Positions 2,854 to 30,026 are shown, counted from the stretch's first letter. The stretch: 33,390 bases of DNA from an uncultured Bdellovibrionales bacterium (GCA_964515255.1 CAZETL010000002.1:1-33390), one strand, 5' to 3'. Notes: generated from the sequence alone by a model not told the origin. Numbers and translations: made by a program.

Positions 2854-4566
2854 ATGAACGAAACGCGTGACAATATCTCCATCGTCCTTGCGGGGGCCGC
2901 TGGAAAAGGTGTGCAGACGGTCGAAGGTATGCTTCTCTCGATTTTGAATGAGGAGGGATACGTCGTTTTTGCGTCGAAAGAGTACATGTCGCGCGTCCGC
3001 GGTGGTTCGAATTCGACAGAGATCAGGGTGTCATCCGGTAATTCGCGGGCTTTCGTGAATAATGTCGACATATTCTTTCCGTTCGATCGGGCGGCGTTTG
3101 AACATATTCGGTCACGAGTGCATGAGAAGACGATTATTGTTGCCGATGAGAAATCGATGGTTGCCAGTTCTGATTATCGGATATTTCGTGCTCCGATATC
3201 GGGCATTGCTTCGGAACTTGGCAATGCTCTCTATGAAAATACAGTGGCAGCTGGCGTCGTACTTGGTCTTCTCGGCGCGGATATTTCCGGGCTCGACGGG
3301 TATATTCGGAATCGATTTTCTTCAAAGGGGGGATCTGTCATTGAGGGAAATATCGAAGCGGGACACCGAGGGTATAAACTTGGTGAGCATCTTGCGTATA
3401 CGGAAAATATTGGCATAAAGATAGCGGGTAACGCCTCTTTGAAAGACGTCGACAGGATACTTCTTGATGGCACCGAATCAATTGGTTTGGGCGCTCTTGC
3501 TGGCGGCTGCAACTTTATCGCTTCCTATCCGATGTCGCCCTCGACCGGAGTTCTCCAATTTCTCGCTCGCGAAGGAGAACGATTTGGGGTTGTCGTGGAA
3601 CAATCCGAAGACGAGATTGCGGCCGTTAATATGGGTCTCGGAGCTTCGTTTGCTGGTGCAAGATCGTTCGTGACAACTTCCGGTGGCGGATTTGCGCTCA
3701 TGTGCGAGGGAGTGTCTCTTGCTGGAATGATGGAACTCCCAATTGTGATTCATGTTGCTCAGCGGCCAGGGCCGGCAACCGGGCTTCCGACTCGGACTGA
3801 GCAAGGGGATCTTGATCTCGTGTTGTATGCGGGGCATGGAGAATTTCCTCGAGCGATTTTCGCTCCAGGAACGCATGAAGAAGCATTTGAGGTGACGCAA
3901 CAGGCGTTTAACATAGCGGAAAAATGGCAGTCCCCGATTTTTCTGCTCTCCGACCAGTATTTTCTTGATACTGTGAAAGCGGTGTCGAAAGATGACTTTG
4001 TCGTGCTTCCAGATATTCGGACCGTTATCGAGACGACGGAAGATTACCAGAGATACGCATATTCGGAAGACGGCGTTTCTCCGAGAGGAATTCCCGGGTG
4101 GGGTTCCGGCCTCGTGGTTTCCGATAGCGATGAGCATACCGAGGACGGACATTTGACGGAGCGTCTTGATACGAGGGTTCTTATGATGGAGAAGCGGATG
4201 CGGAAGCTTGACGGATTGGTTCGGGATGTCATGCCCCCTGTTTGGTTTGGGAAAGAAGAGGCGAAAATAACATGTGTCGGATGGGGATCAACATGCGGAG
4301 CAATACGGGAGGCGATTGAAAAATCCGGGCGCGATGATATCTCGCATCTTCATTTTCGGCAGGTGTATCCATTGCCGGGAAATCTAAAAGATTTCTTTAA
4401 AAATTCTGAGCGGATTATTGTCATTGAAAATAATTTTTCAGGGCAGTTCTCTGTTTTGCTTGAGAGGCACGGAGTTCGTGTGGATCAAAAGATACTAAAA
4501 TATACCGGCGAGCCATTTTCAGTGGAAGAAATTTCTCAGCATATAGCATCTTTTCCGGTCGTATGA
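2854..4566 (+). CDS. 2-oxoacid:ferredoxin (acceptor) oxidoreductase, alpha subunit (fused gamma-alpha type)
   Basis: N-terminal gamma-like block [13 protein letters not shown] and alpha-domain blocks [10 protein letters not shown] and [12 protein letters not shown]. The stop overlaps the beta-subunit start (ATGA). Confidence 0.88.
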
Positions 4567-5417
4567 ATCAGAAACTCTTCGACATGCCGCAAGAGACGGA
4601 TATTGCTTGGTGTCCCGGATGCGGAAACTATCCGCTTCTTACTATTCTTAAAATGGCACTTGTTGAACTTGGCATAGACCCGAGTCGACTCGTCTCTGTT
4701 TCGGGAATCGGACAAGCCGGGAAGGCTCCTCATTACTATAAGACGCATGTCTTCAACGGGCTTCATGGGCGAGCTCTTCCGGCGGCGACCGCTATAAAAA
4801 TGGCGAATCCTGAAATGACGGTGATCGTCGAAAGCGGCGACGGTGACATCTATGCGGAGGGAGGGAACCATTTTACGCATACAGTTCGGAGGAATCCGAA
4901 TATTACGGCGTTTGTTCATAACAACATGGTATACGGCTTGACGAAGGGGCAGGCGTCTCCAACTTCAGAAACCGGCATGAAAACGCCAGTGCAGGTCGCG
5001 GGAGTCGTTTTGGAGCCTTTTAATCCCCTTGCTGCAGCTATCGCGCTCGATTGTTCATTTGTGGCGCGCGCCTTTGTGGGCGATGTGCCGCAGACCAAGG
5101 AGATTCTCAAGAAAGCAATTCAACACACGGGATTCTCTCTTGTAGACATTTTTCAGCCATGTCCCATTTTCAATAAGCAGAATACGTATCCGTGGTTCAA
5201 GGAAAAGACATACTACCTCGAAGAGGAGTATAATAAGAATGACAGAATTGAAGCGTTTCGCAGATCTGTTGAAACTGATCGTCTCCCGCTTGGAATATTC
5301 TACGAGAATTCGGAAAGAATGAATTTTGAATCACAGCTTGCAAATCACGGCGAACCCCTCTACAAGCATCGATTTCGGAAAGAGACATTCGAGAAGTGGC
5401 TCCGTGATCGGCGATAA
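4563..5417 (+). CDS. 2-oxoacid:ferredoxin oxidoreductase, beta (TPP-binding) subunit
   Basis: WCPGCGNY Cys motif and ESGDGD thiamine-diphosphate GDG motif. Translationally coupled to the alpha subunit. Confidence 0.88.
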
Positions 5418-5473
5418 CGGGATCAATCACGAACAGTAAGTTATTTACGATATATTCTTAATTTTTTATTTGT

Positions 5474-6823
5474 ATGGCAAAAGGAATGAAGAGTTTTTCA
5501 GGGTTTGGCAACGTCGCCTTCATTGTACTGGCGCTTGTTGCGGGAGTCGGGGGTTTCGCTATGGCATCTCAGGTGCGGGCGCAAGTGGATGCATGTAGCC
5601 TCCCTGGATTCGGTCCGTGCCCGAGCGGGGATTCTGGAGATTATGGCGGTACGGTGAATTCAACCGAATCGTGCGGACCGGCAATGAATCAGAAGTACGT
5701 CCAGAAGCCTCCAGAGAGCGCGCTTTGCAAGCCCGATTCGACTCTTGAAGAATTCAAGAGGGTTGACATGGAGATTTATCAAGGTGCAGTGCAGGGTTCG
5801 AAAAATCGCTGGAACTGGTATTGCAGGAAGCCGGGTCTTGTGTCGGTGTGTTGGGCGACAGCCGGATCCTTTGCTGAGTCGGCCGGGCCGACCAACTGGT
5901 GCGGGTCTGCGAATGGAAAATCAATATCCGGGCCGCCTTCGAGAGAGCAGCTGTGCGCATCTGGCGCTTCTGCGACCGGAAACCCGACCCAAAAGGTTGC
6001 CACGAAGGAAGATTCTTGCGGGGGATTCGTATGGGTTTGCATGGGGTCCGACGGTTTTGTCAATCGGTGCGAGTCGATTGATCCGATATGGCAGAATGTG
6101 CTCAGGTATAGCGCTTGCATTCCGAAGGCATTAGGATCTTCCACGAGCGAGACAGGCGGCGGCAAATCGGATACGGGTCTTGTCTATAGTCCCCCCAAAA
6201 TCAAAATCGACGGCTTCTGCGGCAATGCCGCCCGGAACTATGGCGAAGGCGAAACGGCTTTCTCCGGCTCTCTCTGCTACACCGGGCTTCCCGATCCGAT
6301 CAATCCGACCTTTCCATCAATGAACGGTTCATCCTCATGGTCCTGCACGGGACTCACCGGAGGAAATGTCTCAAGCCTCTGCACGGCGACAAGAGGAACG
6401 CAAGCCCCGGGAGCCGGAGTCCCTTCTACTTGCTCGGTTTATACGAGCGCAAGCTCCTCAATTCCCGAGGGTTACGGATCCCCATTCAACCAGCTTTCCT
6501 CGGCAAAGGAATCTCTCCTCTCGGTAAATTGTTCTTCGTCCGGAGCGATTGCCACGGCCGGATCTCAGAACACCTATGTCTACAAAACGGGATTTGTTTC
6601 CCGGAACGGCCAGTGGGAAAAGATCGACTTTTCCGGAAACCCGGATCTCAATAATGAGGGATGGTTTGCCGGAAGTTCCCTTGCTAATCTCCCGGCAAGC
6701 AATGGAAACCAGAACTTCGTCATCGCGTTCGTCTGCCAGTACTCGAACGGATCTTGGAAGTGCGGATGCCGAGACGGCGCGTGCACCCAGAATTACTGGA
6801 CCCTCCAAGCGTACAAGAAGTAG
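5474..6823 (+). CDS. Exported Cys-rich repeat protein, paralog A (signal peptide, 3 four-Cys modules, conserved C-terminal domain)
   Basis: Signal peptide ...FAMASQVRA|QVD. Modules of the form CGxANG..LC..G..WxWxC..C. The last ~211 aa are identical to paralog B. Confidence 0.8.
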   Translation: MAKGMKSFSGFGNVAFIVLALVAGVGGFAMASQVRAQVDACSLPGFGPCPSGDSGDYGGTVNSTESCGPAMNQKYVQKPPESALCKPDSTLEEFKRVDMEIYQGAVQGSKNRWNWYCRKPGLVSVCWATAGSFAESAGPTNWCGSANGKSISGPPSREQLCASGASATGNPTQKVATKEDSCGGFVWVCMGSDGFVNRCESIDPIWQNVLRYSACIPKALGSSTSETGGGKSDTGLVYSPPKIKIDGFCGNAARNYGEGETAFSGSLCYTGLPDPINPTFPSMNGSSSWSCTGLTGGNVSSLCTATRGTQAPGAGVPSTCSVYTSASSSIPEGYGSPFNQLSSAKESLLSVNCSSSGAIATAGSQNTYVYKTGFVSRNGQWEKIDFSGNPDLNNEGWFAGSSLANLPASNGNQNFVIAFVCQYSNGSWKCGCRDGACTQNYWTLQAYKK

Positions 6824-7073
6824 TAACTCCTAAAAGAAACACACAAAAACCCTATGGAAGGATCAACTCGGAGAAAATTGGTCATTACCATCCTTCTCCT
6901 CGGCATAGCGATTGTCGCAGCCCTCGCATTCTATAGCTTTTCCAAGAAAGCCCAGGCTCCCGATCTTCCGACTCCTCCTCCGCTTCCTTCGATGCCAAGC
7001 AATCCCCCGGCAAGTTCAATGAAAGGAGAGCTTCCTCCTCCGCCTCCGGCTCTGCCGAGGTGAGGGGTGGCGA
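6192..7073 (+). repeat. 882-bp direct repeat, copy 1 (3' 632 bp of paralog A, 30-bp spacer, small TM ORF, and 10 bp beyond it)
   Basis: Base-by-base comparison with 8423-9304 at offset 2231. The only mismatch I found is 7052 C vs 9283 T. Confidence 0.9.
6854..7063 (+). CDS. Small single-pass membrane protein with a proline-rich tail (copy 1)
   Basis: 69 aa with TM segment LVITILLLGIAIVAALAFYSF, then PDLPTPPPLPSMPSNPP...ELPPPPPALPR. An identical protein is encoded at 9085-9294. Confidence 0.55.
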   Translation: MEGSTRRKLVITILLLGIAIVAALAFYSFSKKAQAPDLPTPPPLPSMPSNPPASSMKGELPPPPPALPR

Positions 7074-7119
7074 TAGTGTATAATGATATAAAATCAAAAG
7101 TGATATTTTATAAAAAATT

Positions 7120-9054
7120 ATGCAGAAATATTTCTCTTACCAGGAAAGGAAAATCAAGTATCCTCATAGACTTTTTTGGGCAATCGTTTTTGTCTTGACT
7201 TTTGGAGTATTCTCTTTTCCAGGCTATTCGGATGCAGCAGTATCGTGCGGCGGCTCGAAGTGGACATGTTCTCAGGGAACCGCAAATGGTCTTGGATACA
7301 CCGGATGTTCCGATTCCGGATGGCGAGGGAATTCAAGTTCAGGAAATAGTTACGGAGCCATTTGGGATTGCGTCGGACCAGATGCCTATAGAGGGGAGAC
7401 TGTAAGTTGTTTTTCTGCGGAAACGCCCCCGCAAAAATGTCCTCCGGATCCAGTTGAATACCCGAGAGGAACTGCGAATCCTCCTCTCGGGAATCTTGAC
7501 AAAGCGGACTGTACGTCTATGTCGGGCGTGGGATATGACCCAGACCATGCTGCGGCAGGTACATACGCTGATTTCACAGTCCAGTTTTTTGATGGACCGA
7601 GGGAGGGAAATAAGCTGATTGGTTCCGTGGGGACGAGTTCGACAGGGCCGCTTTATATGAGGAAGTTCACTTTCTCTACGCCGAATTCAGTGAAAGATGG
7701 CAAAGCCCATACCGTGTATGCTTATGGCGTTGACATCGAAACGGGAGTATTGGGGCAGGTATTTGCTGTTCCGCAAGCATTGAATTGTGCAGCTGTTCCT
7801 GGCGGCGGTTCTGGTGGCGGTTCGGGAGGAGGCTCCGCCTCTTGCGGTTCTGCGAATGGGAGTACTATCCCCGCGCGAGGTCCGGAATGGAGCCAGCTTT
7901 GCGCGAATTCGGCGGAACCGATAAATTTCTCGGCAAGGAATAACGGAAGCGGGTTCTGGGACGGATGGAAGTGGAATTGCGGGAATAATGCTTGCTCGGC
8001 AAACCTTTCCCCAGGGGAATGCGGAACGGCAAATGGAACAAGTCGCGCGTCGGCGCCTTCGACAGTCGGCGAGCTCTGCAAGTCGGGCGTTGCAACGTCC
8101 GTTTCGGGCTCGGGACCTTGGACATGGTCTTGCACAGGAAGAACTTGCTCTGCTAATAAATCAGGCGGGACTGGCGGCGGTGAATCCCGAGACTGGTGCG
8201 GTTTGGCAAATGGCGGAACGTTCTCGACGGAGCCGTCCGGCAGCCAGCTATGCGCTTCGGGCGCGACTTTGGATGGATCAGTGACATACCAGGCGCCATT
8301 TGCTCCAAATCCCTCTGGGAGCTGGAGATGGTCGTGCAGGGGATCGAATGGCAATGTGTCAGCATGCTGGGCAAATAGCTCGTCTTCGCAAGGAGGAGGG
8401 AGCGGTGGAACTGGCAGTGGCGCCCCCAAAATCAAAATCGACGGCTTCTGCGGCAATGCCGCCCGGAACTATGGCGAAGGCGAAACGGCTTTCTCCGGCT
8501 CTCTCTGCTACACCGGGCTTCCCGATCCGATCAATCCGACCTTTCCATCAATGAACGGTTCATCCTCATGGTCCTGCACGGGACTCACCGGAGGAAATGT
8601 CTCAAGCCTCTGCACGGCGACAAGAGGAACGCAAGCCCCGGGAGCCGGAGTCCCTTCTACTTGCTCGGTTTATACGAGCGCAAGCTCCTCAATTCCCGAG
8701 GGTTACGGATCCCCATTCAACCAGCTTTCCTCGGCAAAGGAATCTCTCCTCTCGGTAAATTGTTCTTCGTCCGGAGCGATTGCCACGGCCGGATCTCAGA
8801 ACACCTATGTCTACAAAACGGGATTTGTTTCCCGGAACGGCCAGTGGGAAAAGATCGACTTTTCCGGAAACCCGGATCTCAATAATGAGGGATGGTTTGC
8901 CGGAAGTTCCCTTGCTAATCTCCCGGCAAGCAATGGAAACCAGAACTTCGTCATCGCGTTCGTCTGCCAGTACTCGAACGGATCTTGGAAGTGCGGATGC
9001 CGAGACGGCGCGTGCACCCAGAATTACTGGACCCTCCAAGCGTACAAGAAGTAG
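7120..9054 (+). CDS. Exported Cys-rich repeat protein, paralog B (signal peptide, beta-sandwich-like insert, 4 four-Cys modules, conserved C-terminal domain)
   Basis: Signal peptide ...FPGYSDA|AVS, GGGSGGGSGGGS linkers and four tandem CGxANG..LC..WxWxC..C modules. The C-terminal 211 aa are identical to paralog A. Confidence 0.8.
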   Translation: MQKYFSYQERKIKYPHRLFWAIVFVLTFGVFSFPGYSDAAVSCGGSKWTCSQGTANGLGYTGCSDSGWRGNSSSGNSYGAIWDCVGPDAYRGETVSCFSAETPPQKCPPDPVEYPRGTANPPLGNLDKADCTSMSGVGYDPDHAAAGTYADFTVQFFDGPREGNKLIGSVGTSSTGPLYMRKFTFSTPNSVKDGKAHTVYAYGVDIETGVLGQVFAVPQALNCAAVPGGGSGGGSGGGSASCGSANGSTIPARGPEWSQLCANSAEPINFSARNNGSGFWDGWKWNCGNNACSANLSPGECGTANGTSRASAPSTVGELCKSGVATSVSGSGPWTWSCTGRTCSANKSGGTGGGESRDWCGLANGGTFSTEPSGSQLCASGATLDGSVTYQAPFAPNPSGSWRWSCRGSNGNVSACWANSSSSQGGGSGGTGSGAPKIKIDGFCGNAARNYGEGETAFSGSLCYTGLPDPINPTFPSMNGSSSWSCTGLTGGNVSSLCTATRGTQAPGAGVPSTCSVYTSASSSIPEGYGSPFNQLSSAKESLLSVNCSSSGAIATAGSQNTYVYKTGFVSRNGQWEKIDFSGNPDLNNEGWFAGSSLANLPASNGNQNFVIAFVCQYSNGSWKCGCRDGACTQNYWTLQAYKK

Positions 9055-9304
9055 TAACTCCTAAAAGAAACACACAAAAACCCTATGGAAGGATCAACTC
9101 GGAGAAAATTGGTCATTACCATCCTTCTCCTCGGCATAGCGATTGTCGCAGCCCTCGCATTCTATAGCTTTTCCAAGAAAGCCCAGGCTCCCGATCTTCC
9201 GACTCCTCCTCCGCTTCCTTCGATGCCAAGCAATCCCCCGGCAAGTTCAATGAAAGGAGAGCTTCCTCCTCCGCCTCCGGCTTTGCCGAGGTGAGGGGTG
9301 GCGA
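8423..9304 (+). repeat. 882-bp direct repeat, copy 2 (3' end of paralog B plus the small TM ORF)
   Basis: Same comparison. Identical shadow ORFs in several frames of the ORF track confirm the identity. Confidence 0.9.
9085..9294 (+). CDS. Small single-pass membrane protein with a proline-rich tail (copy 2)
   Basis: Protein identical to 6854-7063, with one synonymous CTG/TTG difference at 9283. Confidence 0.55.
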   Translation: MEGSTRRKLVITILLLGIAIVAALAFYSFSKKAQAPDLPTPPPLPSMPSNPPASSMKGELPPPPPALPR

Positions 9305-9326
9305 CGACTCATCAATTCTGCTGATA

Positions 9327-10526
9327 ATGGGAATGACGAATATAAAATTCAGGAATATTTTCTTTCTCTTGGCTTTCCTTGTAGGTACGCTGTTTCCCTT
9401 TGGCTCCTCGTTTGCTCAGTCGATAGACGATGAATTCTCGTCGCGTGCCGCACAGGTTGCTCTTGATGCTTTTCGGCTGGCACTCGAAAGCATGAAAGGC
9501 GATGGGTCGGTGAGCGAACTTTGTTCAAAAGTGGATGCAAGGTGTGATGGAGAGAAAAAAGAGGCTCGAGGGAAGAACTCGTCTGGTGATTTTGTTGCAG
9601 TTTTTCTTGATGATTCCGATGAGCAGCTTGGTTGCGGTGACGGTGTTGCGAAGATCCGATTTATTCGCGTCGAGGGGAGTTTTGCGAACAGCACCCGAGT
9701 GCTTGGAGCGAGGATATCTTTCAGGGAGGAATCTGTTGCAAAATGCGGATCTGCAAATGGATCGTCCTACGAGAATTCGCATATCCCAGAGGCGGATTTG
9801 TGTGAAAAGGGGTCTCCGAGTCCCATTGCAAAATCGAGTGACGGGAAACAGTGGGTATGGCTTTGTATAGCAGGAGACGCCAATGTCTCATGCTCGGCGA
9901 GCGTCATCGATACGAACGGTCTCGCGGGGAAGTGCGGAGATGCCGCGAAAGAGTATCTGCCCGAGGAGAGCGTTTTTTCAGGGCCGTTTTGTTCCAAAGG
10001 AAACTCTCGTCCGGTGGACATAGCTTTCCCGGTTCCAGGAGCATCGGTATCGTGGCGCTGCGTATCGGACGGGTATGAATCGGAGGCTTGCATCGCAAGG
10101 CGTCGATCCTCCGGCTCCACAAATGACTGCTCGCTCATTTCCGATCCGTTCGGAATTCCTGATGGATACGGGCCGCCGTTCAATATGCTCTCATCTGCAC
10201 AGGAACCAGTTCTTACTGTTTCATGCGATCCGGGGAACATTCGAGCGACGGCAGGGAGTTCAACGGCTCAAACATTCGTCTACAATAAGGGGTTTGTATA
10301 TGCGGGAGGCTCATGGCAAAGCATTTCTTTTTCAGGGATGAATGCTACGGGGAATCCGGGGTGGCTTTCGGGTAAGGCGAATTCCTCTCTTCTTCCCGAA
10401 GCGACGGGCGGGGCGGGAAATTTTGTTATTGCCTTTGTCTGTCAATACGTCGAGAATTCCTGGAAGTGCGGATGTCGAGATAAGGCATGCGCCAATAGCT
10501 TTTGGACTCTTCAGAAATACAAGTGA
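9327..10526 (+). CDS. Exported Cys-rich repeat protein, paralog C (divergent). The ORF is open from GTG 9291; ATG 9327 is preferred
   Basis: From ATG 9327 the N-terminus MGMTNIKFRNIFFLLAFLVGTLFPFGSSFA|QS is a signal peptide. It has two 4-Cys modules and a C-terminal domain sharing NFVIAFVCQY..SWKCGCRD.AC..WTLQ.YK with A and B. Confidence 0.78.
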   Translation: MGMTNIKFRNIFFLLAFLVGTLFPFGSSFAQSIDDEFSSRAAQVALDAFRLALESMKGDGSVSELCSKVDARCDGEKKEARGKNSSGDFVAVFLDDSDEQLGCGDGVAKIRFIRVEGSFANSTRVLGARISFREESVAKCGSANGSSYENSHIPEADLCEKGSPSPIAKSSDGKQWVWLCIAGDANVSCSASVIDTNGLAGKCGDAAKEYLPEESVFSGPFCSKGNSRPVDIAFPVPGASVSWRCVSDGYESEACIARRRSSGSTNDCSLISDPFGIPDGYGPPFNMLSSAQEPVLTVSCDPGNIRATAGSSTAQTFVYNKGFVYAGGSWQSISFSGMNATGNPGWLSGKANSSLLPEATGGAGNFVIAFVCQYVENSWKCGCRDKACANSFWTLQKYK

Positions 10527-10563
10527 ATCTCAATCTTGCGGATTCAGGGATTTGCGGGAATGG

Positions 10564-10599
10564 AAACGGAGGATGATGATCAATCGCCTCCGTTTTTTA
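10564..10599 (+). terminator. Rho-independent terminator after paralog C
   Basis: AAACGGAGG-(14 nt)-CCTCCGTTT followed by a T-run. Confidence 0.7.
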
Positions 10600-10715
10600 T
10601 CCTCCTATTGAGGGTTCCCGTAGAATCCTTGTGGGAAGCTGATTCCCATGCTATTTATTTACGAGAGCTTCCGAGAGTTCGGATTGTTTTCCTGGGTAAA
10701 GAGACAAACAAGCAT

Positions 10716-11849
10716 ATGGCTCCGGAGTCCAATACTGAGCGCGGCGGAGAACGCGGAAGAAAAAAATATGTCCGAACCGCACATGGTGCTCTCGAAACAC
10801 CGTTTTTCATGCCGGACGCCACTCGGGCCTCAGTTAGAGGTATTGAAATGAATTCGGTCCGGAATATCGGCATTGAAGCGGCAGTGGTGAATACCTACCA
10901 CCTTATGTTGCATCCGGGATCCCGGGCTATTGCGGGATTTGGAGGAGTTCACCGATTTATGGGATGGGATTTCCCGGTCCTGTCCGATTCCGGGGGGTAT
11001 CAGGTGTATTCATTGATCCATAAGCATCCGGATTTTGGGAAAATTACCGAGGATGGAGCTATATTTCGGTCTCCCCTTGATGGGTCGAAACGACTTTTGA
11101 CACCAGAGAAGTCTATCGATATCCAGTTCGATCTCGGCGTTGATATGATGGTGTGCTTGGATGATCCGAGGCCGAATGATGCTCCCCAAAGCGATCTCGT
11201 CCAGGCGGTTGAACGGACTATTCGATGGGCAAGGCGTTGCAAGGATCGATATGAAGAGCGAGTTATAAACGTAGATCCGAATCGTCGGCCACTTCTTTTC
11301 GGAGTTGTGCAGGGCGGGTTGGATCTCGAGCTTCGTCGGGAATGCGCTTCGGAGCTTGGAAAGATTGGTTTTGACGGATACGGTTTTGGAGCGAGACACA
11401 TTGATAATGATGGAAGTTTCCTTGAAGAAGTGCTGCGCGAGACAGCGAAGGCTGTGCCGGAGACATCTTTGCGATTTGCGCTTGGAGTTGGAACTCCGAT
11501 GGATATCGTTCGCTGTTATCGGCTCGGCTGGGATATGTTTGATTGCGTTATCCCGACACGAGAGGGGCGACATGGCCGCGCATTCGTCTGGAAGCGCGAG
11601 ATGTTGCTTGATGACGATTTCTATGATGCGATCCGTATAACGGGGGAGCAGTTTTCGGATGATCTCAGGCCGATAGATTCGGAGTGCGATTGCCCTGCGT
11701 GTCGAGGAGGATTTTCGCGGGCGTACATTCGCTACCTTTTTTCGAGTGCCGATTCGCTTGGCTCGAGACTTGTCTCTTTGCATAACCTTAGATTTTACGC
11801 GCAGTTGCTTCAATTGCTCCGCACCGGAAGCGAACGGGTGTTTCTTTGA
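10716..11849 (+). CDS. tgt: tRNA-guanine transglycosylase (queuine/preQ1 tRNA-ribosyltransferase family)
   Basis: Blocks ETPFFMPDAT, DSGGYQV and MFDCVIPTREGRHG, plus the Zn site CDCPAC. The ORF is open from 10536, but homology-like sequence begins near ATG 10716. Confidence 0.85.
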   Translation: MAPESNTERGGERGRKKYVRTAHGALETPFFMPDATRASVRGIEMNSVRNIGIEAAVVNTYHLMLHPGSRAIAGFGGVHRFMGWDFPVLSDSGGYQVYSLIHKHPDFGKITEDGAIFRSPLDGSKRLLTPEKSIDIQFDLGVDMMVCLDDPRPNDAPQSDLVQAVERTIRWARRCKDRYEERVINVDPNRRPLLFGVVQGGLDLELRRECASELGKIGFDGYGFGARHIDNDGSFLEEVLRETAKAVPETSLRFALGVGTPMDIVRCYRLGWDMFDCVIPTREGRHGRAFVWKREMLLDDDFYDAIRITGEQFSDDLRPIDSECDCPACRGGFSRAYIRYLFSSADSLGSRLVSLHNLRFYAQLLQLLRTGSERVFL

Positions 11850-23832: not shown

Positions 23833-24540
23833 CTATCGTCGGATCTCAACCGAAGGGAGTCTTCCAAGAAGGCGATCTCGTATTCGTTCGAGATTGAGCG
23901 ACTTCGATCTTGATTTTTCTGCAAGCGACGGATCAAAAATTTTCACGTCGCGGAATTCTTGGAGAGCGTAGCGGCGCGCACCCCGGATCCAATCCCCGAT
24001 TTCGTCGAAGTCTTCTTCTTCGTGGATGCCCGGGACCACCGTAGTGCGGAATTCGTAGTCGGCACCGCTTTCCATGATGAGGCGCGCGCTTTCTCGGAAT
24101 CGATCGATGGCGATATGGGGATTCCCGGAAGCAATCGAGTATTTTTCAGGGGCGTGCTTGATGTCCATCGCCCAGAAATCAATGAGATTCGTTTGCATGA
24201 GGAGCCGTACTTTTTCGGGGAAGGCGCCGTTTGTATCGAGTTTTACGAGGAAGCCGAGCGATTTTATTTCCCGGATAAATTCCTCGAGATCGGGCTGGAG
24301 CGTCGGTTCGCCGCCGGTGATGCAGACGCCGTCGAGTTTCCCTTGCCTCTTCTTGAGAAATTCGAGGAATTCGCCAGCTTTGTCGCCGCCTGTCTGCGCA
24401 AGATACTCATCGGTCGGCTCGATGAGTTCCGGATTGTGGCAGAACGGACACCGGAGGGCGCAGCCGATCGTAAAGGCGACGGAAGCGATTTTCCCGGGGT
24501 AGTCGAGGAGCGTGAGCGGATGGTATCCGGCGAGACGCAT
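23833..24540 (-). CDS. nrdG: Anaerobic ribonucleoside-triphosphate reductase activating protein (radical SAM)
   Basis: CALRCPFCHNPE (CxxxCxxC) cluster near the N-terminus, GGEPTLQ block, and nrd-locus context. Confidence 0.88.
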   Translation of the reverse strand: MRLAGYHPLTLLDYPGKIASVAFTIGCALRCPFCHNPELIEPTDEYLAQTGGDKAGEFLEFLKKRQGKLDGVCITGGEPTLQPDLEEFIREIKSLGFLVKLDTNGAFPEKVRLLMQTNLIDFWAMDIKHAPEKYSIASGNPHIAIDRFRESARLIMESGADYEFRTTVVPGIHEEEDFDEIGDWIRGARRYALQEFRDVKIFDPSLAEKSRSKSLNLERIRDRLLGRLPSVEIRR

Positions 24541-24544
24541 ATTC

Positions 24545-24573
24545 TTGACATGACTAGTTATCTGTGATAAAAT
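24545..24573 (+). promoter_or_regulatory. Near-consensus sigma70 promoter for the 81-aa ORF
   Basis: TTGACA (24545-24550), a 17-nt spacer, then TAAAAT (24568-24573). A GTTAGC-ATTCG-GCTAAC hairpin (24579-24595) lies in the predicted leader. Confidence 0.6.
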
Positions 24574-24614
24574 GGTAAGTTAGCATTCGGCTAACGGTGG
24601 CGTAGGAGGAAGTC

Positions 24615-24860
24615 ATGAGTCACAACGAATTTTCGATAGTACCGGGCGTATATCGGGCAGTAGTCTGCGCGCAAGACCTTACGCCAACAGGGATGATGGA
24701 CGCGGAAGTGATGATCTTCCCCGATGGAACCGGGAAGTTTATGTGTTCGCGGAACGGGATCGTATCTCAGTATCCGAACGTCCATATTCGTACGGATAGG
24801 GGCGAGGGATTGAGGGAGATTGTCCGCGTGGGAGTGAGGCTGAATATCGTCGATGATTGA
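24615..24860 (+). CDS. Hypothetical 81-aa protein forming an independent opposite-strand unit inside the nrd locus
   Basis: AGGAGG lies 5 nt upstream of the ATG. A TTGACA-17-TAAAAT promoter is at 24545-24573 and a hairpin plus T-run terminator at 24887-24930. Composition is more protein-like than the overlapping minus-strand ORF. Confidence 0.6.
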   Translation: MSHNEFSIVPGVYRAVVCAQDLTPTGMMDAEVMIFPDGTGKFMCSRNGIVSQYPNVHIRTDRGEGLREIVRVGVRLNIVDD

Positions 24861-24886
24861 CGAGGGATATTCAGCTATCAATTTCA

Positions 24887-24930
24887 AAGGACGGCATTAC
24901 TTATGTGTGCTGTCCTTCTTTATTTTCATT
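24887..24930 (+). terminator. Terminator between the convergent 81-aa ORF (+) and the glycyl-radical mini-ORF (-)
   Basis: AAGGACGGCA-(11 nt)-TGCTGTCCTT (one G.U pair) followed by CTTTATTTTCATTTTT. The T-run is strong only on the plus strand. Confidence 0.6.
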
Positions 24931-24958
24931 TTTACCCCCACATTTTCTCTCCGAATGG

Positions 24959-25210
24959 TCATGCTGCGCTCGGGATGTATTCGAGGCGGTCGCCATATTC
25001 CTGCTGCTTCCCTTTGTTCCACTGTTCGACGGGGCGGATATAGCCGACGACTCGAGTGTAGACTTCCGCTTTCTGGAAATCGGCGAGCGCGGGATTCATC
25101 TCGTGGCAGGAGCGGCATTTTGCAAAGGTTTCGCCGCTTGCCTCATAGGGCATATATTCCTCACCTTTCTTCAGTGTCTTTTCGCAATCGTGGCACGTTA
25201 TCGCTTGCAT
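24959..25210 (-). CDS. Free-standing NrdD C-terminal module: zinc ribbon plus glycyl-radical loop (83 aa)
   Basis: CHDC-x22-CRSC, then EVYTRVVGYIRPVEQWNKGKQQEYGDR. This matches the RVxGY..WN.GK..E glycyl-radical tail normally found at the C-terminus of NrdD. Confidence 0.75.
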   Translation of the reverse strand: MQAITCHDCEKTLKKGEEYMPYEASGETFAKCRSCHEMNPALADFQKAEVYTRVVGYIRPVEQWNKGKQQEYGDRLEYIPSAA

Positions 25211-25301
25211 ACTCTTTTTGTTAGAGATTATTTTTTACATTTTTTGGCGGCGTGGAGGGATGTTTTTTTAAGAAAATCTTGGCAGCTTGCTCCTGAGTGA
25301 T

Positions 25302-25604
25302 TCATCTGGGAATCTCTTCCCACTGTACCCCTGATTCAAACGCATTCACATCCTCTTCGTATTGTTCGCGCGTTGCTCGAATGGTTATCGAATCAATATG
25401 CAATTTTGTTCCATGCATGTCCAGAAGTGCTTTCGCCTCCCTTGCTTTATTGACGCCGACCCAGTTGGCAACTATTGAGAAACGAGCGGAGGGATTTCTT
25501 CTAATTCTTTCTCGCAAAGAAGAAACAAAACTTCCGAAATCCACCTTGTTAAATTCTACGCCGAGTTCGAGCGGGAGCTCTTTTTCGGCGGGAATTCTTT
25601 CCAT
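25302..25604 (-). CDS. Hypothetical 100-aa protein inserted between the two NrdD pieces
   Basis: Own AAGGA SD upstream of the ATG. No Cys, and no HNH, GIY-YIG or LAGLIDADG motif that I recognised. Confidence 0.55.
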   Translation of the reverse strand: MERIPAEKELPLELGVEFNKVDFGSFVSSLRERIRRNPSARFSIVANWVGVNKAREAKALLDMHGTKLHIDSITIRATREQYEEDVNAFESGVQWEEIPR

Positions 25605-25637
25605 AAGTTTTTCCTTACCAATTATTTTTTTGAATTT

Positions 25638-27737
25638 TTACGCTTTCTTATACTCTTTCGCGGTTGGCGCTGCTACGCACTTCGGACAAGTCTTGTGTTC
25701 GCCGGGGAGATAGCCGTGCGCGGGGCAAACGCTGAAGGTCGGAGACAGCGTGAAGTAAGGAAGGCGGTATTTCTCGGCGATTCTCTTGACGAGCGTTTTC
25801 GCAAGCGCGGGATCATTGATGCGCTCCCCGAGGAATCCGTGGAGAACCGTTCCTCCGGTGTATTGCGTCTGGAGATTATCCTGGAGGTCGAGCGCTTCGA
25901 AGATGTCGTCGGTAAAGCCGACGGGGAGATGGGAGGAATTGGTGTAGTACGGTTCGGCGTGTTTTGTTTTCACTTCCCGATCATTCGCGACGGTGATATC
26001 GGGGTATTTCTTCATATCGAGAAGCGCGAGCCGGTACGCGGTTCCTTCAGCCGGAGTCGCTTCGAGATTAAAGAGATTATTCGTCTTCTCCTGGTAATTT
26101 CCGATTCGTTCGCGCATATGCGTGAGGAGTCGCTCTGCAAACGATTGTCCCTTGGAAGTCGTGATGTCGGTTTTGAGGAGATTTCGGATCGCTTCATTGG
26201 TGCCGACGAGTCCGATGGTGCTGAAGTGATTCTTCCAGAATTGTTGGAACCGCTTCTTTACATTCGACAAATAGAACTTCGTATAGGGATACAGACCCTT
26301 TTCAGTGAGGCCTTCAACTACCTTCCGTTTTATTTCGAGGCTTTCTTTCGCAATATCCATGAGCCGATCCAGGCGTTTGAAGAAATCCTTTTCATTTTTC
26401 GCGAGGTATCCAATGCGCGGAAGATTGAGCGTGACGACTCCGATTGAGCCGGTAAGGGGGTTTGCGCCGAAAAGTCCGCCGCCGCGGCGGCGGAGCTCGC
26501 GATTGTCGAGCCGGAGTCGGCAGCACATGCTTCGCGCGTCGTCAGGGCTCATGTCGGAGTTTACGAAATTGGCAAAGTAGGGAATGCCGTATTTCGCAGT
26601 CATTTCCCAGAGCGGCGCGTGCGCCGGATTGTTCCAGTCGAAGTCCTTCGTGATGTTGTAGGTCGGGATAGGGAACGTGAAAATGCGGCCCGATGAATCG
26701 CCTTCGCACATGACCTCCGCAAAAGCGCGATTGATCATCGCCATCTCAGCAGCAAAATCGCCGTAGGTTTCTTTCTGCGGTTCGCCGCCGATAATGACAT
26801 GCTCGCTGGAGAGGATTTTCGGCGGAATGAGATCAAGCGTGATATTCGAGAACGGCGTCTGGAATCCGACGCGCGTCGAAACGTTCATGTTGAAGACGAA
26901 AGATTGAATCTCCTGCTTTACTTGTCGATACGAAAGTTTGTCATACCGGACGAAAGGAGCGAGCAATGTGTCGAAGTTGGAAAATGCCTGTGCGCCCGCG
27001 ACTTCGCCTTGGAGCGTATAGATGAACTTCACCATTTGCCCAAGTGCCGATCCGAGGTGTTTTGCTGGTTTGCACGAGACTTTGCCGGGGACGCCGGTGA
27101 AGCCGCGACGGAGGAGATCTTCCAGATCCCAGCCACAGCAATAGGCGGAGATGAGTTGGAGATCGTGGATATGGAGATCGCCCGATTCATGGGCTTCGCG
27201 GACTTCTTTCGGATAAATCCGATTCATCCAGTATTTCGTGCTGATTGCAGAAGAGACGTAGTTATTGAGTCCTTGCAAAGAATACGCCATATTGGCGTTT
27301 TCTTTCACGAGCCAGTCGAGATTGCCGATATATTTATCGACAAGATGGACAGCTTTGACGAGAGACTCTTCCGCTTCTCGTGTCTCTCGATGTTGTTCGC
27401 GGTAGAGAATATACGCTTTTGCCGTCTCGTGGTATCCCTCGGACATGAGGACGGTTTCGACGAGGTCCTGAATCTCTTCGATCTTTGGGATGAATTTCCC
27501 GAGGTTTTGTTTTGCGTATCGGCGGGACTTTTGCTCCAGAAGCGACACGACTTTTTTGCCGAGGCGAGGGGCTTCTTTTTCTGTTCCTGCTTGCGTCGCG
27601 GAGAGGGCTTTTTCGATGGCGTTCGCAATTTTGTACGGGTTGAATGGCACGGTTCGACCGCTTCGCTTTCGCACGGATTCGACCGATGCTTTTTCTTTTT
27701 GTTTGAGAGATTTTTTCGTTGCCATACCTTTTTTCAT
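25638..27737 (-). CDS. nrdD: Anaerobic ribonucleoside-triphosphate reductase (class III) large piece: ATP-cone, barrel and zinc site, lacking the glycyl-radical loop
   Basis: ATP-cone VRKRSGRTVPFNPYKIANAIEKAL. NrdD-like blocks TFPIPTYN, MCCRLRLD, YYTNSSHLPV and QTQYTGGTVLHGFLGE. The protein ends ...CPAHGYLPGEHKTCPKCVAAPTAKEYKKA*. GTG 27773 and ATG 27725 are alternative starts. Confidence 0.88.
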   Translation of the reverse strand: MKKGMATKKSLKQKEKASVESVRKRSGRTVPFNPYKIANAIEKALSATQAGTEKEAPRLGKKVVSLLEQKSRRYAKQNLGKFIPKIEEIQDLVETVLMSEGYHETAKAYILYREQHRETREAEESLVKAVHLVDKYIGNLDWLVKENANMAYSLQGLNNYVSSAISTKYWMNRIYPKEVREAHESGDLHIHDLQLISAYCCGWDLEDLLRRGFTGVPGKVSCKPAKHLGSALGQMVKFIYTLQGEVAGAQAFSNFDTLLAPFVRYDKLSYRQVKQEIQSFVFNMNVSTRVGFQTPFSNITLDLIPPKILSSEHVIIGGEPQKETYGDFAAEMAMINRAFAEVMCEGDSSGRIFTFPIPTYNITKDFDWNNPAHAPLWEMTAKYGIPYFANFVNSDMSPDDARSMCCRLRLDNRELRRRGGGLFGANPLTGSIGVVTLNLPRIGYLAKNEKDFFKRLDRLMDIAKESLEIKRKVVEGLTEKGLYPYTKFYLSNVKKRFQQFWKNHFSTIGLVGTNEAIRNLLKTDITTSKGQSFAERLLTHMRERIGNYQEKTNNLFNLEATPAEGTAYRLALLDMKKYPDITVANDREVKTKHAEPYYTNSSHLPVGFTDDIFEALDLQDNLQTQYTGGTVLHGFLGERINDPALAKTLVKRIAEKYRLPYFTLSPTFSVCPAHGYLPGEHKTCPKCVAAPTAKEYKKA

Positions 27738-27802
27738 GGAGAAAAGAAAAACCGTGGAAATCTTCTCCCCCACGGAGTGCGCGCTTCGAAGGGCGCCTCC
27801 CC

Positions 27803-27905: not shown

Positions 27906-30026
27906 ATGAGCATTGCGTCGCTTCTTGAACCGAAATCGATAGCCGTCGTAGGCGCTTCCACACAGGCGGGAAGCGTCGGAAATGATATTGTCAAAAATCT
28001 CGTTACACAAGGCTTTCAAGGGAAAGTTTTTCCCGTGAACCCAAAAACAAATGAATTGTACGGAGTTCCTTGTTTCCCAAATGTATCTTCGATTGAAGAT
28101 GACATTGAATGCGTCGTGATTGCCGTGCCGGCGAGCATTGTGCCCCAGGTATTGCGGGAAGCGGTGGAGAAAGGGATTCGGGCGGCAATTGTCATTTCCG
28201 CGGGATTCGGCGAATCGGGTCATGAGGATCTGGAACAAGAAATCGCATCGATTGCTGAGAAGGGCGGTATTTCCCTCTTGGGCCCGAATTGTCTCGGAGT
28301 TGTGAACCCCTCTCTTTCTCTCAACGCCTCTTTTGCGAGAACGCTTCCGAAGCGCGGCGGCGTTGCATTTTTGTCGCAGAGCGGCGCACTTGGCACGGCA
28401 ATTCTCGACGCCGCCGGAAATTATGGTATCGGGATATCCAAATTCGTCAGTCTCGGGAACAAGGCGCGCCTTGATGAACAGGCATTGCTTGAGTATCTTG
28501 CGCAGGATCGGAAAACGAAAGTTATCGCGATATACGCTGAGTCATTCAGGAACCCGGGGGCATTGAAGCGTATCGCGCGAAAGATGGCGATGTCGAAGCG
28601 TCCGAAGCCGATTATCGTGTTGAAATCTGGCCGGACGAATGCGGGCGCGTCGGCGCTTGCCTCCCATACAGGGGCGCTTGCTGGGAACGATGCGAGCTAT
28701 CAGGCGCTTTTTGAAGAGTCCGGGATACTCCGTGCGGAGACCGTAGAAGAGCTATTCCTATTGGCGCGAGCATTCTCGCTTGCTCCGATTCCGAAGGGTC
28801 GTCATGTCGCTATCCTCACAAATGCCGGAGGTCCGGGAGTGCTTGCTGCTGATGCGGCGATTTCTTCCGGCCTTGTTCTTGCTCCGATGAGCGAGAAAAC
28901 GAAAAACTCTCTGAGGAGTTTTCTGCCGGAGGCTGCGAGCGTAAAGAACCCGGTTGATATTCTCGGCGATGCGCGAAGCGACAGATATTTGAGAGCTCTG
29001 AGCGAAGTGCTGGCGGATTCGGAAGTGCAGTCCGTGCTTGTTCTCTTGACGCCGCAGTCCATGACGGATATAGAGGCGATTGCTGATTCGATCGCTGAGG
29101 AGGCGAAAAAACATGAGAAGCCCGTAGTGGCCGTATTCATGGGAGGGAAACTGGTTTCGAGCGGATTAAAGACGCTTCTCCGGAAGAAGATTCCAACGGC
29201 AAGCTTTCCCGAAGCGGGAATTTGCATGCTCTCGGCGCTCGCAAGGTTCTCTGAGTGGTGTGGTTCAATTTGGTCGAGAGAGGCCGGGCCTTATGTGTAC
29301 GCGATTCTTCCAGCATCGGATCGCATTCGCAAGGAGCAGGCGAAAGATATCGTGCAGGCGGTTCGCGATTCGGGGAGGCACATGCTCTCACCCGTTGAAA
29401 CACTGGATTTCTTTTCGAGTTACGGTTTTCCGATACCGAAATACGGCAGGGCATTGACATTGGAAGATGCTGTCCGAGTTGCCGGGGAGATCGGGGGCGA
29501 GTGTGCGATGAAAATACTCTCTGACGATATTACCCACAAGACTGATTCTGGAGGCGTTTCCCTTGGTGTTCGTCCGGAACAAGCCGGTGCAGCATTCTCT
29601 GATATGATGAAGCGCGTCCAGACAAGAGTCCCGGATGCGCAGCTCGATGGCGTGCTTCTTATGGAAATGGCTGCCTCCGGCGGTTTCGAATTGATTCTTG
29701 GGAGTTTTCGCGATTCGAATCTTGGGAACACGATTATGATTGGCGCGGGCGGCATTTATTCCGAGACGCTCAAGGATACAGCTTTCGGCCTTGCTCCGGT
29801 TGATCGCGATCGAGCTGGGCGAATGATTTCATCGCTTCGAGTCGCCCCCATTCTGAGCGGAGCGAGAGGGAAGGGCGCGCTTGATATGGCGGCGTTTATC
29901 GAGTGTATCGGTCGTCTTTCAGAACTTCTGGCGGATTTTCCGGAAATTCGCGAACTTGATATGAATCCAGTTCTTGTCTATGAGAACAGAGTGGTAGTCG
30001 TCGACGGCAGGGTTATGCTGGACTGA
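27906..30026 (+). CDS. Acetyl-CoA synthetase (ADP-forming), an acetate--CoA ligase family protein (fused alpha/beta)
   Basis: CoA-binding N-terminus SIAVVGAS, succinyl-CoA-synthetase-like NCLG block and a C-terminal ATP-grasp domain. Confidence 0.85.
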   Translation: MSIASLLEPKSIAVVGASTQAGSVGNDIVKNLVTQGFQGKVFPVNPKTNELYGVPCFPNVSSIEDDIECVVIAVPASIVPQVLREAVEKGIRAAIVISAGFGESGHEDLEQEIASIAEKGGISLLGPNCLGVVNPSLSLNASFARTLPKRGGVAFLSQSGALGTAILDAAGNYGIGISKFVSLGNKARLDEQALLEYLAQDRKTKVIAIYAESFRNPGALKRIARKMAMSKRPKPIIVLKSGRTNAGASALASHTGALAGNDASYQALFEESGILRAETVEELFLLARAFSLAPIPKGRHVAILTNAGGPGVLAADAAISSGLVLAPMSEKTKNSLRSFLPEAASVKNPVDILGDARSDRYLRALSEVLADSEVQSVLVLLTPQSMTDIEAIADSIAEEAKKHEKPVVAVFMGGKLVSSGLKTLLRKKIPTASFPEAGICMLSALARFSEWCGSIWSREAGPYVYAILPASDRIRKEQAKDIVQAVRDSGRHMLSPVETLDFFSSYGFPIPKYGRALTLEDAVRVAGEIGGECAMKILSDDITHKTDSGGVSLGVRPEQAGAAFSDMMKRVQTRVPDAQLDGVLLMEMAASGGFELILGSFRDSNLGNTIMIGAGGIYSETLKDTAFGLAPVDRDRAGRMISSLRVAPILSGARGKGALDMAAFIECIGRLSELLADFPEIRELDMNPVLVYENRVVVVDGRVMLD

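Follow-up and report, generated by a model that had tools for sequence, protein, structure and literature searches.

What are three neighbouring genes for cysteine-rich, apparently exported proteins made of, and what might these proteins do at the surface of an apparently anaerobic cell? The question is raised by positions 5474 to 10526 of a 33,390-nucleotide stretch of DNA (the window, i.e., the whole stretch that was analysed) from a genome labelled as an uncultured Bdellovibrionales bacterium (GCA_964515255.1, CAZETL010000002.1:1-33390). A first-pass annotation, made by a model that read only the DNA, had described the three genes, here named A, B and C, as consecutive paralogues for exported proteins with a repeated four-cysteine module, and had proposed a family of variable, adhesin-like proteins. 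The analysis reported here resolves the proteins into a small four-cysteine module, termed the bead, and a C-terminal domain, termed WKCGCRD after its signature motif. A, B and C probably, though with guarded confidence, are Sec-exported, modular, cysteine-rich extracellular proteins in which a stalk of beads carries a terminal WKCGCRD binding or docking domain.

The four-cysteine bead and the WKCGCRD domain

The bead occurs in two subtypes, CGxANG…GPWxWxC…C (type 1, 51 amino acids (aa)) and CGxAAxxY…FP…WxC…C (type 2, 59 aa). The type-1 consensus is GACGSANGxSxSSAPSxNLCSSGTASxVSGSGPWTWSCxGSNGGxxASCSA and the type-2 consensus is GACGTAAKTYAYSATSYGSDTFCSAGTASPATPAFPAQGSSVTWTCQGLNGGSTATCTA. In A, B and C, the type-2 module is always located immediately N-terminal to the C-terminal domain. 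Hidden Markov models (HMMs) of both types were built without the window sequences to avoid circular scoring, the type-2 model from 31 external copies in 11 proteins. The null distribution came from 900 shuffled versions of A, B and C, with maximum scores of 8.4 bits for type 1 and 8.8 bits for type 2. A type-1 module was defined by a significant score with the external HMM and the presence of all four elements C1-G, L-C2-x-x-G, (G)PWxWxC3 and C4-x-A. Modules 2 and 3 of B, the first module of C and module 2 of A have these properties, and a type-2 module is present in each of the three proteins. The Cys/Trp pattern agrees with the module numbers given in the first-pass annotation (three in A, four in B and two in C). 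The external HMMs recognised seven of these modules with significance, whereas module 1 of A and module 1 of B were assigned by pattern only; the latter has corresponding copies in the relatives P0001 and P0003. The Gly/Ser linkers between modules, also described before, are visible in the translations.

The bead is not limited to this locus. With a profile of 97 type-1 modules, a search of 1.84 billion cluster representatives matched at least 5,206 of them at E<=1e-3, with 2,890 at E<=1e-10 and 739 at E<=1e-30. A single protein contained up to 29 matched bead stretches. The 231 proteins that were fetched hold 1,472 bead copies. All four cysteines are present in 1,365 of the 1,375 full-length copies (99%) and only 10 copies are without some cysteine. 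Conservation is similarly high for the second Trp (99%), the Gly after Cys1 (96%) and the Gly three residues past Cys2 (96%). The 181 fetched module-bearing proteins have up to 23 copies, separated by linkers with a median length of 7 aa. Of the module-bearing proteins, 168 start with Met, and 137 of these have a hydrophobic N-terminus. The bead is combined with highly diverse domains: prepilin N-termini, OmpA, GH5 cellulase, RCC1, fibro-slime, LCCL and PKD. Named sources are few, namely Dojkabacteria, Moraniibacteriota, Bdellovibrionales and Alphaproteobacteria.

An AlphaFold2 model was calculated for module 2 of B with the 97-sequence alignment. It reached a predicted local distance difference test score (pLDDT) of 92; a short strand at the N-terminus and a helix of one turn precede a C-terminal beta-hairpin that bears the WxWxC motif. 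A Foldseek search of the bead model against the PDB revealed no neighbour (best E-value 4.3). The structure prediction suggested earlier for a single module thus yielded a confident small fold without a PDB neighbour. Even for proteins with 18–29 matched bead stretches, no model in Pfam and NCBIfam covers the bead, in agreement with the first-pass statement that the module stands outside the named domain families. A full-text literature search by topic and motif strings found no description of the bead or the WKCGCRD domain. The bead is a real, widespread module without a description in Pfam, NCBIfam, the PDB or the searchable literature. Given four invariant cysteines in exported proteins, two disulfides per bead may reasonably be inferred.

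In A, B and C, the final ~135 aa terminate in WKCGCRDxxCxxxxWxxQxY. Members of this second family were defined by a length of ~135 aa, a six-Cys pattern and the sequence W-K-C-G-C-R-D-x-x-C near the C-terminal end of the domain, and all three proteins have these features. The C-terminal domain that the first pass had seen in common is the same in A and B through a duplication, and more distant in C (Table 1). In the family alignment, C39, C107, C116, C118 and C123 are invariant and C6 is near-invariant; the aromatic residues Y56, W67, W83, W114 and W128 are invariant too. A profile search detected 47 proteins and a genome scan 60 loci. The loci are nearly all in metagenome-assembled genomes (MAGs) of the Candidate Phyla Radiation (CPR)/Patescibacteria: Moraniibacteriota, Peregrinibacteria, Saccharibacteria, Paceibacterota, Falkowbacteria and others. 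A few are in MAGs labelled Bdellovibrionales, Gammaproteobacteria or Rhodospirillales, and one is in a Nanoarchaeia MAG. The complete 1.05-Mb Moraniibacteriota genome CP064994.1 has nine WKCGCRD loci.

The domain can stand alone, occupy the extreme C-terminus or, as in Saccharibacteria, follow directly on a hydrophobic leader at the N-terminus. Its carriers include beta-helix, Big_13, fn3 and PKD proteins without the four-Cys module. The AlphaFold2 model is an all-beta sandwich (pLDDT 94, predicted template modelling score (pTM) 0.88). Foldseek searches of this model against the PDB and BFVD gave generic Ig-like matches with template modelling (TM) scores below 0.5. No match was obtained for WKCGCRD-only sequences in Pfam or for the profile in PDB sequences, and a scan of IMG/VR for the domain found no relative. 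The WKCGCRD domain is a second family without a Pfam, NCBIfam or PDB description; it is CPR-enriched and multi-copy.

Gene order, conserved cassette and origin of gene A

ORFs A, B and C are present on the same strand where the first-pass annotation had placed the three genes (Table 1). They are not strictly consecutive: five same-strand open reading frames (ORFs) follow each other in the order A, s1, B, s2 and C, with intergenic gaps of 30–56 nt, so that two small ORFs for identical proteins intervene. The proposed signal-peptide starts were recovered in all three proteins by a heuristic sequence check. Their N-termini have a basic n-region, a hydrophobic core (12-aa Kyte-Doolittle maxima of 2.5–3.1) and a small-x-small site. 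Putative cleavage sites are VRA↓Q in A, SDA↓A in B and SFA↓Q in C. Every one of the cysteines (22 in A, 30 in B and 17 in C) lies C-terminal to the putative cleavage site. The N-terminal parts vary among A, B and C and the C-terminal part is conserved, as described before. The extra insert of B, previously estimated at ~110 aa, is present with ~119 aa. The Cys-rich segment in front of it could be a degenerate module.

Table 1. Coordinates of the genes, domains, modules and repeats of the locus and of metabolic genes in the window
Feature	Position	Strand	Description
Gene A	5474..6823	+	449 aa: signal peptide, two divergent type-1 modules, type-2 module, WKCGCRD domain
A signal-peptide-like N-terminus	5474..5581	+	aa 1-36, ...QVRA↓Q; heuristic reading
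A module 1	5669..5857	+	aa 66-128, divergent; Cys/Trp pattern only; HMMs 7.0 and 3.7 bits, not above shuffle maximum
A module 2	5897..6076	+	aa 142-201, type 1 with one extra Cys; 11.2 bits vs shuffle maximum 8.4
A type-2 module	6215..6388	+	aa 248-305; 50.5 bits vs shuffle maximum 8.8
A WKCGCRD domain	6422..6820	+	aa 317-449; from family alignments
Small ORF s1	6854..7063	+	69 aa; one hydrophobic span, then Pro-rich tail (PPPLPxxPxNPP ... PPPPPALP)
Gene B	7120..9054	+	644 aa: signal peptide, Cys-rich N-terminal segment, 119-aa insert, three type-1 modules, type-2 module, WKCGCRD domain
B signal-peptide-like N-terminus	7120..7236	+	aa 1-39, ...YSDA↓A; heuristic reading
B N-terminal Cys-rich segment	7243..7419	+	aa 42-100; kept in P0001; no significant module-HMM score
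B insert domain	7435..7791	+	aa 106-224; conserved in P0001 (E 3e-59); no Pfam match
B module 1	7840..8001	+	aa 241-294, type 1 with long insertion; pattern match; external HMM not significant
B module 2	8017..8154	+	aa 300-345, canonical type 1; 48.6 bits vs 8.4
B module 3	8194..8373	+	aa 359-418, type 1; 18.0 bits vs 8.4
B type-2 module	8446..8619	+	aa 443-500; 49.8 bits vs 8.8
B WKCGCRD domain	8653..9051	+	aa 512-644; identical to A copy
Small ORF s2	9085..9294	+	69 aa; protein identical to s1
Gene C	9327..10526	+	399 aa from ATG 9327 (NCBI version), or 411 aa from GTG 9291: signal peptide, lineage-specific N-terminal domain, type-1 module, type-2 module, WKCGCRD domain
C N-terminal domain	9417..9740	+	aa 43-150 of the 411-aa form
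C type-1 module	9741..9899	+	32.6 bits vs 8.4
C type-2 module	9930..10097	+	45.0 bits vs 8.8
C WKCGCRD domain	10119..10523	+	51-52% identical to A and B
Duplication copy 1	6192..7073	+	882-bp direct duplication; 3' 632 bp of A, spacer, s1, 10 bp beyond
Duplication copy 2	8423..9304	+	882-bp direct duplication
2-oxoacid:ferredoxin oxidoreductase	2854-5417		
NrdD anaerobic ribonucleotide reductase and radical-SAM activase	23833-27773	minus	
ADP-forming acetyl-CoA synthetase	27906-30026		

A search with the N-terminal domain of C retrieved a single partial Moraniibacteriota protein. The domain is confined to C-like proteins of Moraniibacteriota, apart from a weak match to an ORF of locus L036. 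In a MAG labelled Bdellovibrionales, this ORF (~6679-7515) immediately follows a WKCGCRD gene and possibly has a PilX-like N-terminus; the PilX_N match (E 0.85) is far below the threshold but covers the full model length. The likeness of its globular part to the N-terminal domain of C is weak (E 4e-5 in a small local database).

Searches of A, B, C and the small ORF against Pfam, NCBIfam and PHROGs gave no family match, and for the small ORF the score against TIGR02537 was sub-threshold (15.9 bits vs a cutoff of 20). A PDB sequence search with B was without a match, and a metagenome scan with C alone found no relative. A promoter and terminator scan of 5300-10800 gave no signal exceeding the shuffle expectation. 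The exact A protein is present in three public sources. The exact B protein is missing from a collection of 15 billion proteins that does include A, C and the upstream gene of the same NCBI contig.

B and C have relatives in other genomes. The closest relative of B, P0001, is 65% identical over 97% of B, and relatives of C were found at the loci L004 (44% identity), L002 (36%) and L065. At locus L004 of CP064994.1 (4820-11672), a 730-aa B-like gene, a 77-aa ORF and a 410-aa C-like gene stand in this order between ftsA and ftsZ. The 730-aa protein has a different Cys-rich N-terminal region, modules and a WKCGCRD domain that is 62% identical to the A/B copy, and the 77-aa ORF codes for one hydrophobic span and a Pro-rich tail. 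The same three genes were found in a second Moraniibacteriota MAG (L002, 3-3860), directly upstream of ftsZ. In the window, the cassette sits between an oxidoreductase gene and tgt instead of the cell-division cluster seen in L004 and L002. ORFs like s1 occur directly downstream of B-like genes in L001, L002, L003/L063, L004 and L064, with 49% identity to s1 in L001. The small ORF was not found behind the other WKCGCRD genes examined. The shared gene order at identities of 36–65% identifies B and C as old genes. The relatives in other genomes are intact, and none of the refutations that the first pass had named (a module of characterised domain and function, unsupported signal peptides, absence or pseudogenisation in close relatives) applies. 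Its view of a variable family holds with a restriction: only A is recent and genome-specific, and B and C are old and conserved.

Two of these loci have further features. Within L004, positions 6216-7100 code for another Cys-rich repeat with about four copies (…GGCxI…WGVGCG…YPxPPSGYxCGxV…YYxCxK…), unrelated to the bead and without a Pfam match. At L001, a T4SS_pilin (PF18895) gene and a weak Imm1 match (6170-7321) are located a few kb downstream of the P0001 gene. The surroundings of L001 look like a mobile element, unlike the context in the window.

Gene A has a different history. The 882-bp direct duplication begins eight codons before the type-2 module and extends through the WKCGCRD domain and the small ORF. 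Its two copies differ at one position, 7052, which leaves the s1/s2 protein unaffected. With a unique 5' part and the duplicated 3' part of B, A is a chimera and, judged from this comparison, a recent, genome-specific addition. Such a repeat, 99.9% identical in one contig, is a feature that short-read assemblers mishandle, and gene A and the A/B identity could stem from a collapsed or mis-joined repeat, the locus really containing only B and C. The absence of the exact B protein from the protein collection would fit this explanation, which is nevertheless hardly credible. Logan contig L062 from an independent assembly (run SRR21694149) spans 4539-6918 at 99.9% identity, with the upstream gene, the complete A gene and 727 bp of the repeat. 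As it crosses the A junction, A is not an assembly artefact. The occurrence of the A protein in three sources and a like sharing of 3' ends in the complete genome CP064994.1 also speak against an artefact, and this explanation is largely refuted.

In CP064994.1, the four dispersed genes L039, L040, L041 and L047 have 3' ends of 440–720 bp that are 96–99.6% identical and encode WKCGCRD. Their 5' parts do not align to each other. Recombination onto a 3' cassette, or gene conversion of it, seems to be a recurrent way to make or homogenise such genes. In L047 (6204-8432), an in-frame stop lies within WKCGCRD (…TPEGNDRDS*NQTRV…); this may be a pseudogene or a sequencing error.

The neighbours of the locus are housekeeping genes, with a 2-oxoacid:ferredoxin oxidoreductase upstream and a tRNA-guanine transglycosylase (tgt) downstream. 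The window also encodes FtsK, two aminoacyl-tRNA synthetases (a class II enzyme and MetRS), TatD and a ZnuA ABC system. Neither rRNA nor tRNA genes were found in a tRNA scan and an Rfam scan of the whole window. For the cassette and its gene order, the closest relatives are in Moraniibacteriota and Peregrinibacteria MAGs, Moraniibacteriota being a member of the Patescibacteria group. By this indirect assignment, the window most likely originates from a Moraniibacteriota-like (CPR/Patescibacteria) anaerobe. NrdD with its activase, the 2-oxoacid:ferredoxin oxidoreductase and the acetyl-CoA synthetase indicate an anaerobic, fermentative host.

Docking, adhesion and other readings

In the favoured reading, each protein consists of a variable N-terminal 'head', one to three type-1 beads, one type-2 bead and a 135-aa, six-Cys Ig-like sandwich. 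The beads would fold autonomously as small units, each probably held by two disulfides, and together give a stiff stalk or spacer. The same role between pilin N-termini, OmpA, glycoside hydrolases and similar domains seems to fall to them in thousands of further exported proteins. WKCGCRD would be a common binding or docking module that is put on many different secreted proteins. Its target would most likely be one ligand of the bacterium's own envelope, to which all carriers are tied; a glycan of a partner cell is the alternative. The presence of the domain on many unrelated secreted proteins of one genome favours docking to a self-encoded partner, and its concerted evolution within genomes fits a domain that matches a genome-specific partner. 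A candidate for a membrane partner or tether of B-type proteins is the 69-aa Pro-rich protein with its single hydrophobic span. New paralogues like A could form by recombination of a new 5' part onto the 3' cassette of type-2 bead, WKCGCRD and small gene.

Several observations weigh against this stalk-and-docking reading. Export rests on a heuristic reading of the N-termini, and the function is a prediction. Stand-alone WKCGCRD proteins exist, with only a hydrophobic leader and the domain, which suggests an autonomous ligand-binding role rather than a pure anchor. Homogenisation has not reached all copies in the genome: between C and A or B, the WKCGCRD domain is only ~51% identical. The apparently anaerobic lifestyle makes extracellular disulfide formation not self-evident for secreted proteins with 17–30 cysteines each. 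The topology of the small protein is ambiguous, with basic residues on both flanks of the hydrophobic span, and the taxonomic assignment of the window is indirect.

The adhesin role envisaged in the first-pass annotation is plausible. WKCGCRD or the variable heads would bind glycans or proteins of a host cell, and the proteins would be released or displayed in another way. The CPR lineage and the differences of the N-terminal heads among paralogues and among genomes are in line with host-binding adhesins or lectins. Stand-alone WKCGCRD proteins and fusions beside CBM6, discoidin, LamG and DUF5010_C recall carbohydrate-binding modules, and several aromatic residues of WKCGCRD (Y56, W67, W83, W114 and W128) are invariant. 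WKCGCRD itself, however, matches no carbohydrate-binding-module family, a self-encoded partner accounts more simply for its concerted evolution within a genome, and both the host and the binding are hypothetical. Host binding, above all of a host glycan, is the main alternative, possible but doubtful. A connection to pili is distinctly less easy to maintain. The bead proteins would be accessory or tip proteins of the pili by which CPR attach to hosts, either type IV pili or a type IV secretion pilus. Five of the 35 matches to B carry the prepilin N-terminal domain PF07963 together with beads, and an NCBIfam prepilin model matches P0004. The L036 ORF, possibly PilX-like (PilX_N E 0.85), is weakly matched by the N-terminal domain of C, and in L001, the B-like gene is followed after 2.6 kb by a T4SS_pilin gene. 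A, B and C themselves have ordinary signal-peptide-like N-termini without the G-F-T-L-I-E prepilin motif, the window has no pilus genes and the PilX_N match is far below the threshold, which makes a pilus role unlikely.

The four cysteines of each bead could also form a Cys4 metal site instead of disulfides, which would make A, B and C extracellular metal binders or redox-active components of an anaerobe. The invariance of the four cysteines and the anaerobic genome context are compatible with such a site; the even cysteine counts of A and B suit either assignment. Cys4 zinc sites typically have CxxC or CxxxxC knuckles. The bead spacing of C-x18-C-x17-C-x4-9-C is without them, beads are almost exclusively found in proteins with export signals, and AlphaFold predicts a compact beta fold without a cofactor. 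A metal site is accordingly quite improbable, and disulfides in a bead stalk are preferred.

Other identities were tried and rejected. For Sushi/CCP (PF00084), there was no Pfam match at E<=1 and no PDB fold match, and the Trp pair of the bead precedes Cys3. A, B and C are not type IV pilins or prepilins (PF07963, TIGR02532), as they have no Pfam or NCBIfam match and the motif is missing from their N-termini. The C-terminal sorting domain of the type IX secretion system (T9SS) was discarded for lack of a Pfam or NCBIfam match, the additional N-terminal and stand-alone placement of WKCGCRD and the misfit of the lineage; T9SS belongs to Bacteroidota and is not known from CPR lineages. Carbohydrate-binding modules (CBM6, discoidin/F5_F8_C) were rejected with WKCGCRD-only sequences that lack a Pfam match and with Foldseek TM scores of 0.26–0.30. 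WKCGCRD fills the last ~140 aa of its carriers, and their CBM6, F5_F8_C and DUF5010_C matches thus lie in neighbouring N-terminal parts. A diversity-generating retroelement is not indicated: no reverse transcriptase was found among the larger ORFs scanned (20 ORFs at E<=1e-5; A, B, C and the small ORF at E<=1), and the only repeat is the one of 882 bp with one mismatch. For a phage tail fibre or receptor-binding protein, there was no PHROGs match, no IMG/VR relative and no BFVD fold match.

The reading of A, B and C as stalked docking proteins can be extended to a speculative proposal, for which confidence is low. WKCGCRD would be the docking module of a CPR-wide display system, with its copies kept matched by gene conversion to a self-encoded envelope receptor, possibly the Pro-rich protein in the case of B-type proteins. 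Secreted enzymes and adhesins would thereby be tethered on cells without classical anchors, and the bead would be a fold of a new kind, braced by disulfides, from which the stalks in these proteins and in CPR pilins are made. CPR/Patescibacteria are regarded as living in attachment to other microbes, and little is known of how their surface is built and decorated. The bead could serve to define a new domain family, with which thousands of exported proteins now called 'hypothetical', CPR pilins among them, would gain an annotation. WKCGCRD is a concrete candidate for a surface-docking or ligand-binding module and the small Pro-rich protein a candidate partner. Should the function prove ordinary, the result would remain a useful annotation without being a new principle.

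Comparison with known systems

The general plan of repeated small domains with a terminal targeting domain is familiar; both building blocks are abundant and undescribed in the curated libraries and the literature searched. Sushi/CCP, EGF-like and TSP1 domains are likewise extracellular beads of 40–60 aa with conserved Cys and Trp that stand in series. This is an analogy only, as neither sequence nor structure match. The Trp pair of the bead lies directly before Cys3, whereas Sushi has a conserved Trp between Cys3 and Cys4, and EGF has six cysteines in contrast to four in the bead. The best Foldseek matches of WKCGCRD, NEAT domains and the N-terminal domain of DsbD, have an Ig-like beta-sandwich topology in common with it. 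With TM scores of 0.45–0.46, ~10% identity and a best E-value of 3e-3, this is a generic likeness and not a membership.

In its terminal position, at either end, on many unrelated secreted proteins, WKCGCRD resembles SLH domains, dockerins, T9SS C-terminal domains and carbohydrate-binding modules. It differs from them by the lack of a sequence or fold match, by six conserved cysteines and by its additional occurrence as a stand-alone protein. CPR type IV pilins with long C-terminal extensions are related in plan, as beads follow prepilin N-termini in P0004, P0014 and P0015; unlike these, A, B and C are without the prepilin cleavage and methylation motif. Compared with the tandem stalks of Big/Ig-like, FN3, PKD, Rib, G5-E and SHIRT domains, the bead has about half the size (51–59 aa), four invariant cysteines and no Pfam, NCBIfam or PDB match, and its stalk role is a prediction. 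The likeness lies in the architecture: short domains are arranged head-to-tail with short linkers in exported proteins, positioned between anchoring and functional ends, with a bead copy number from 1 to 29.

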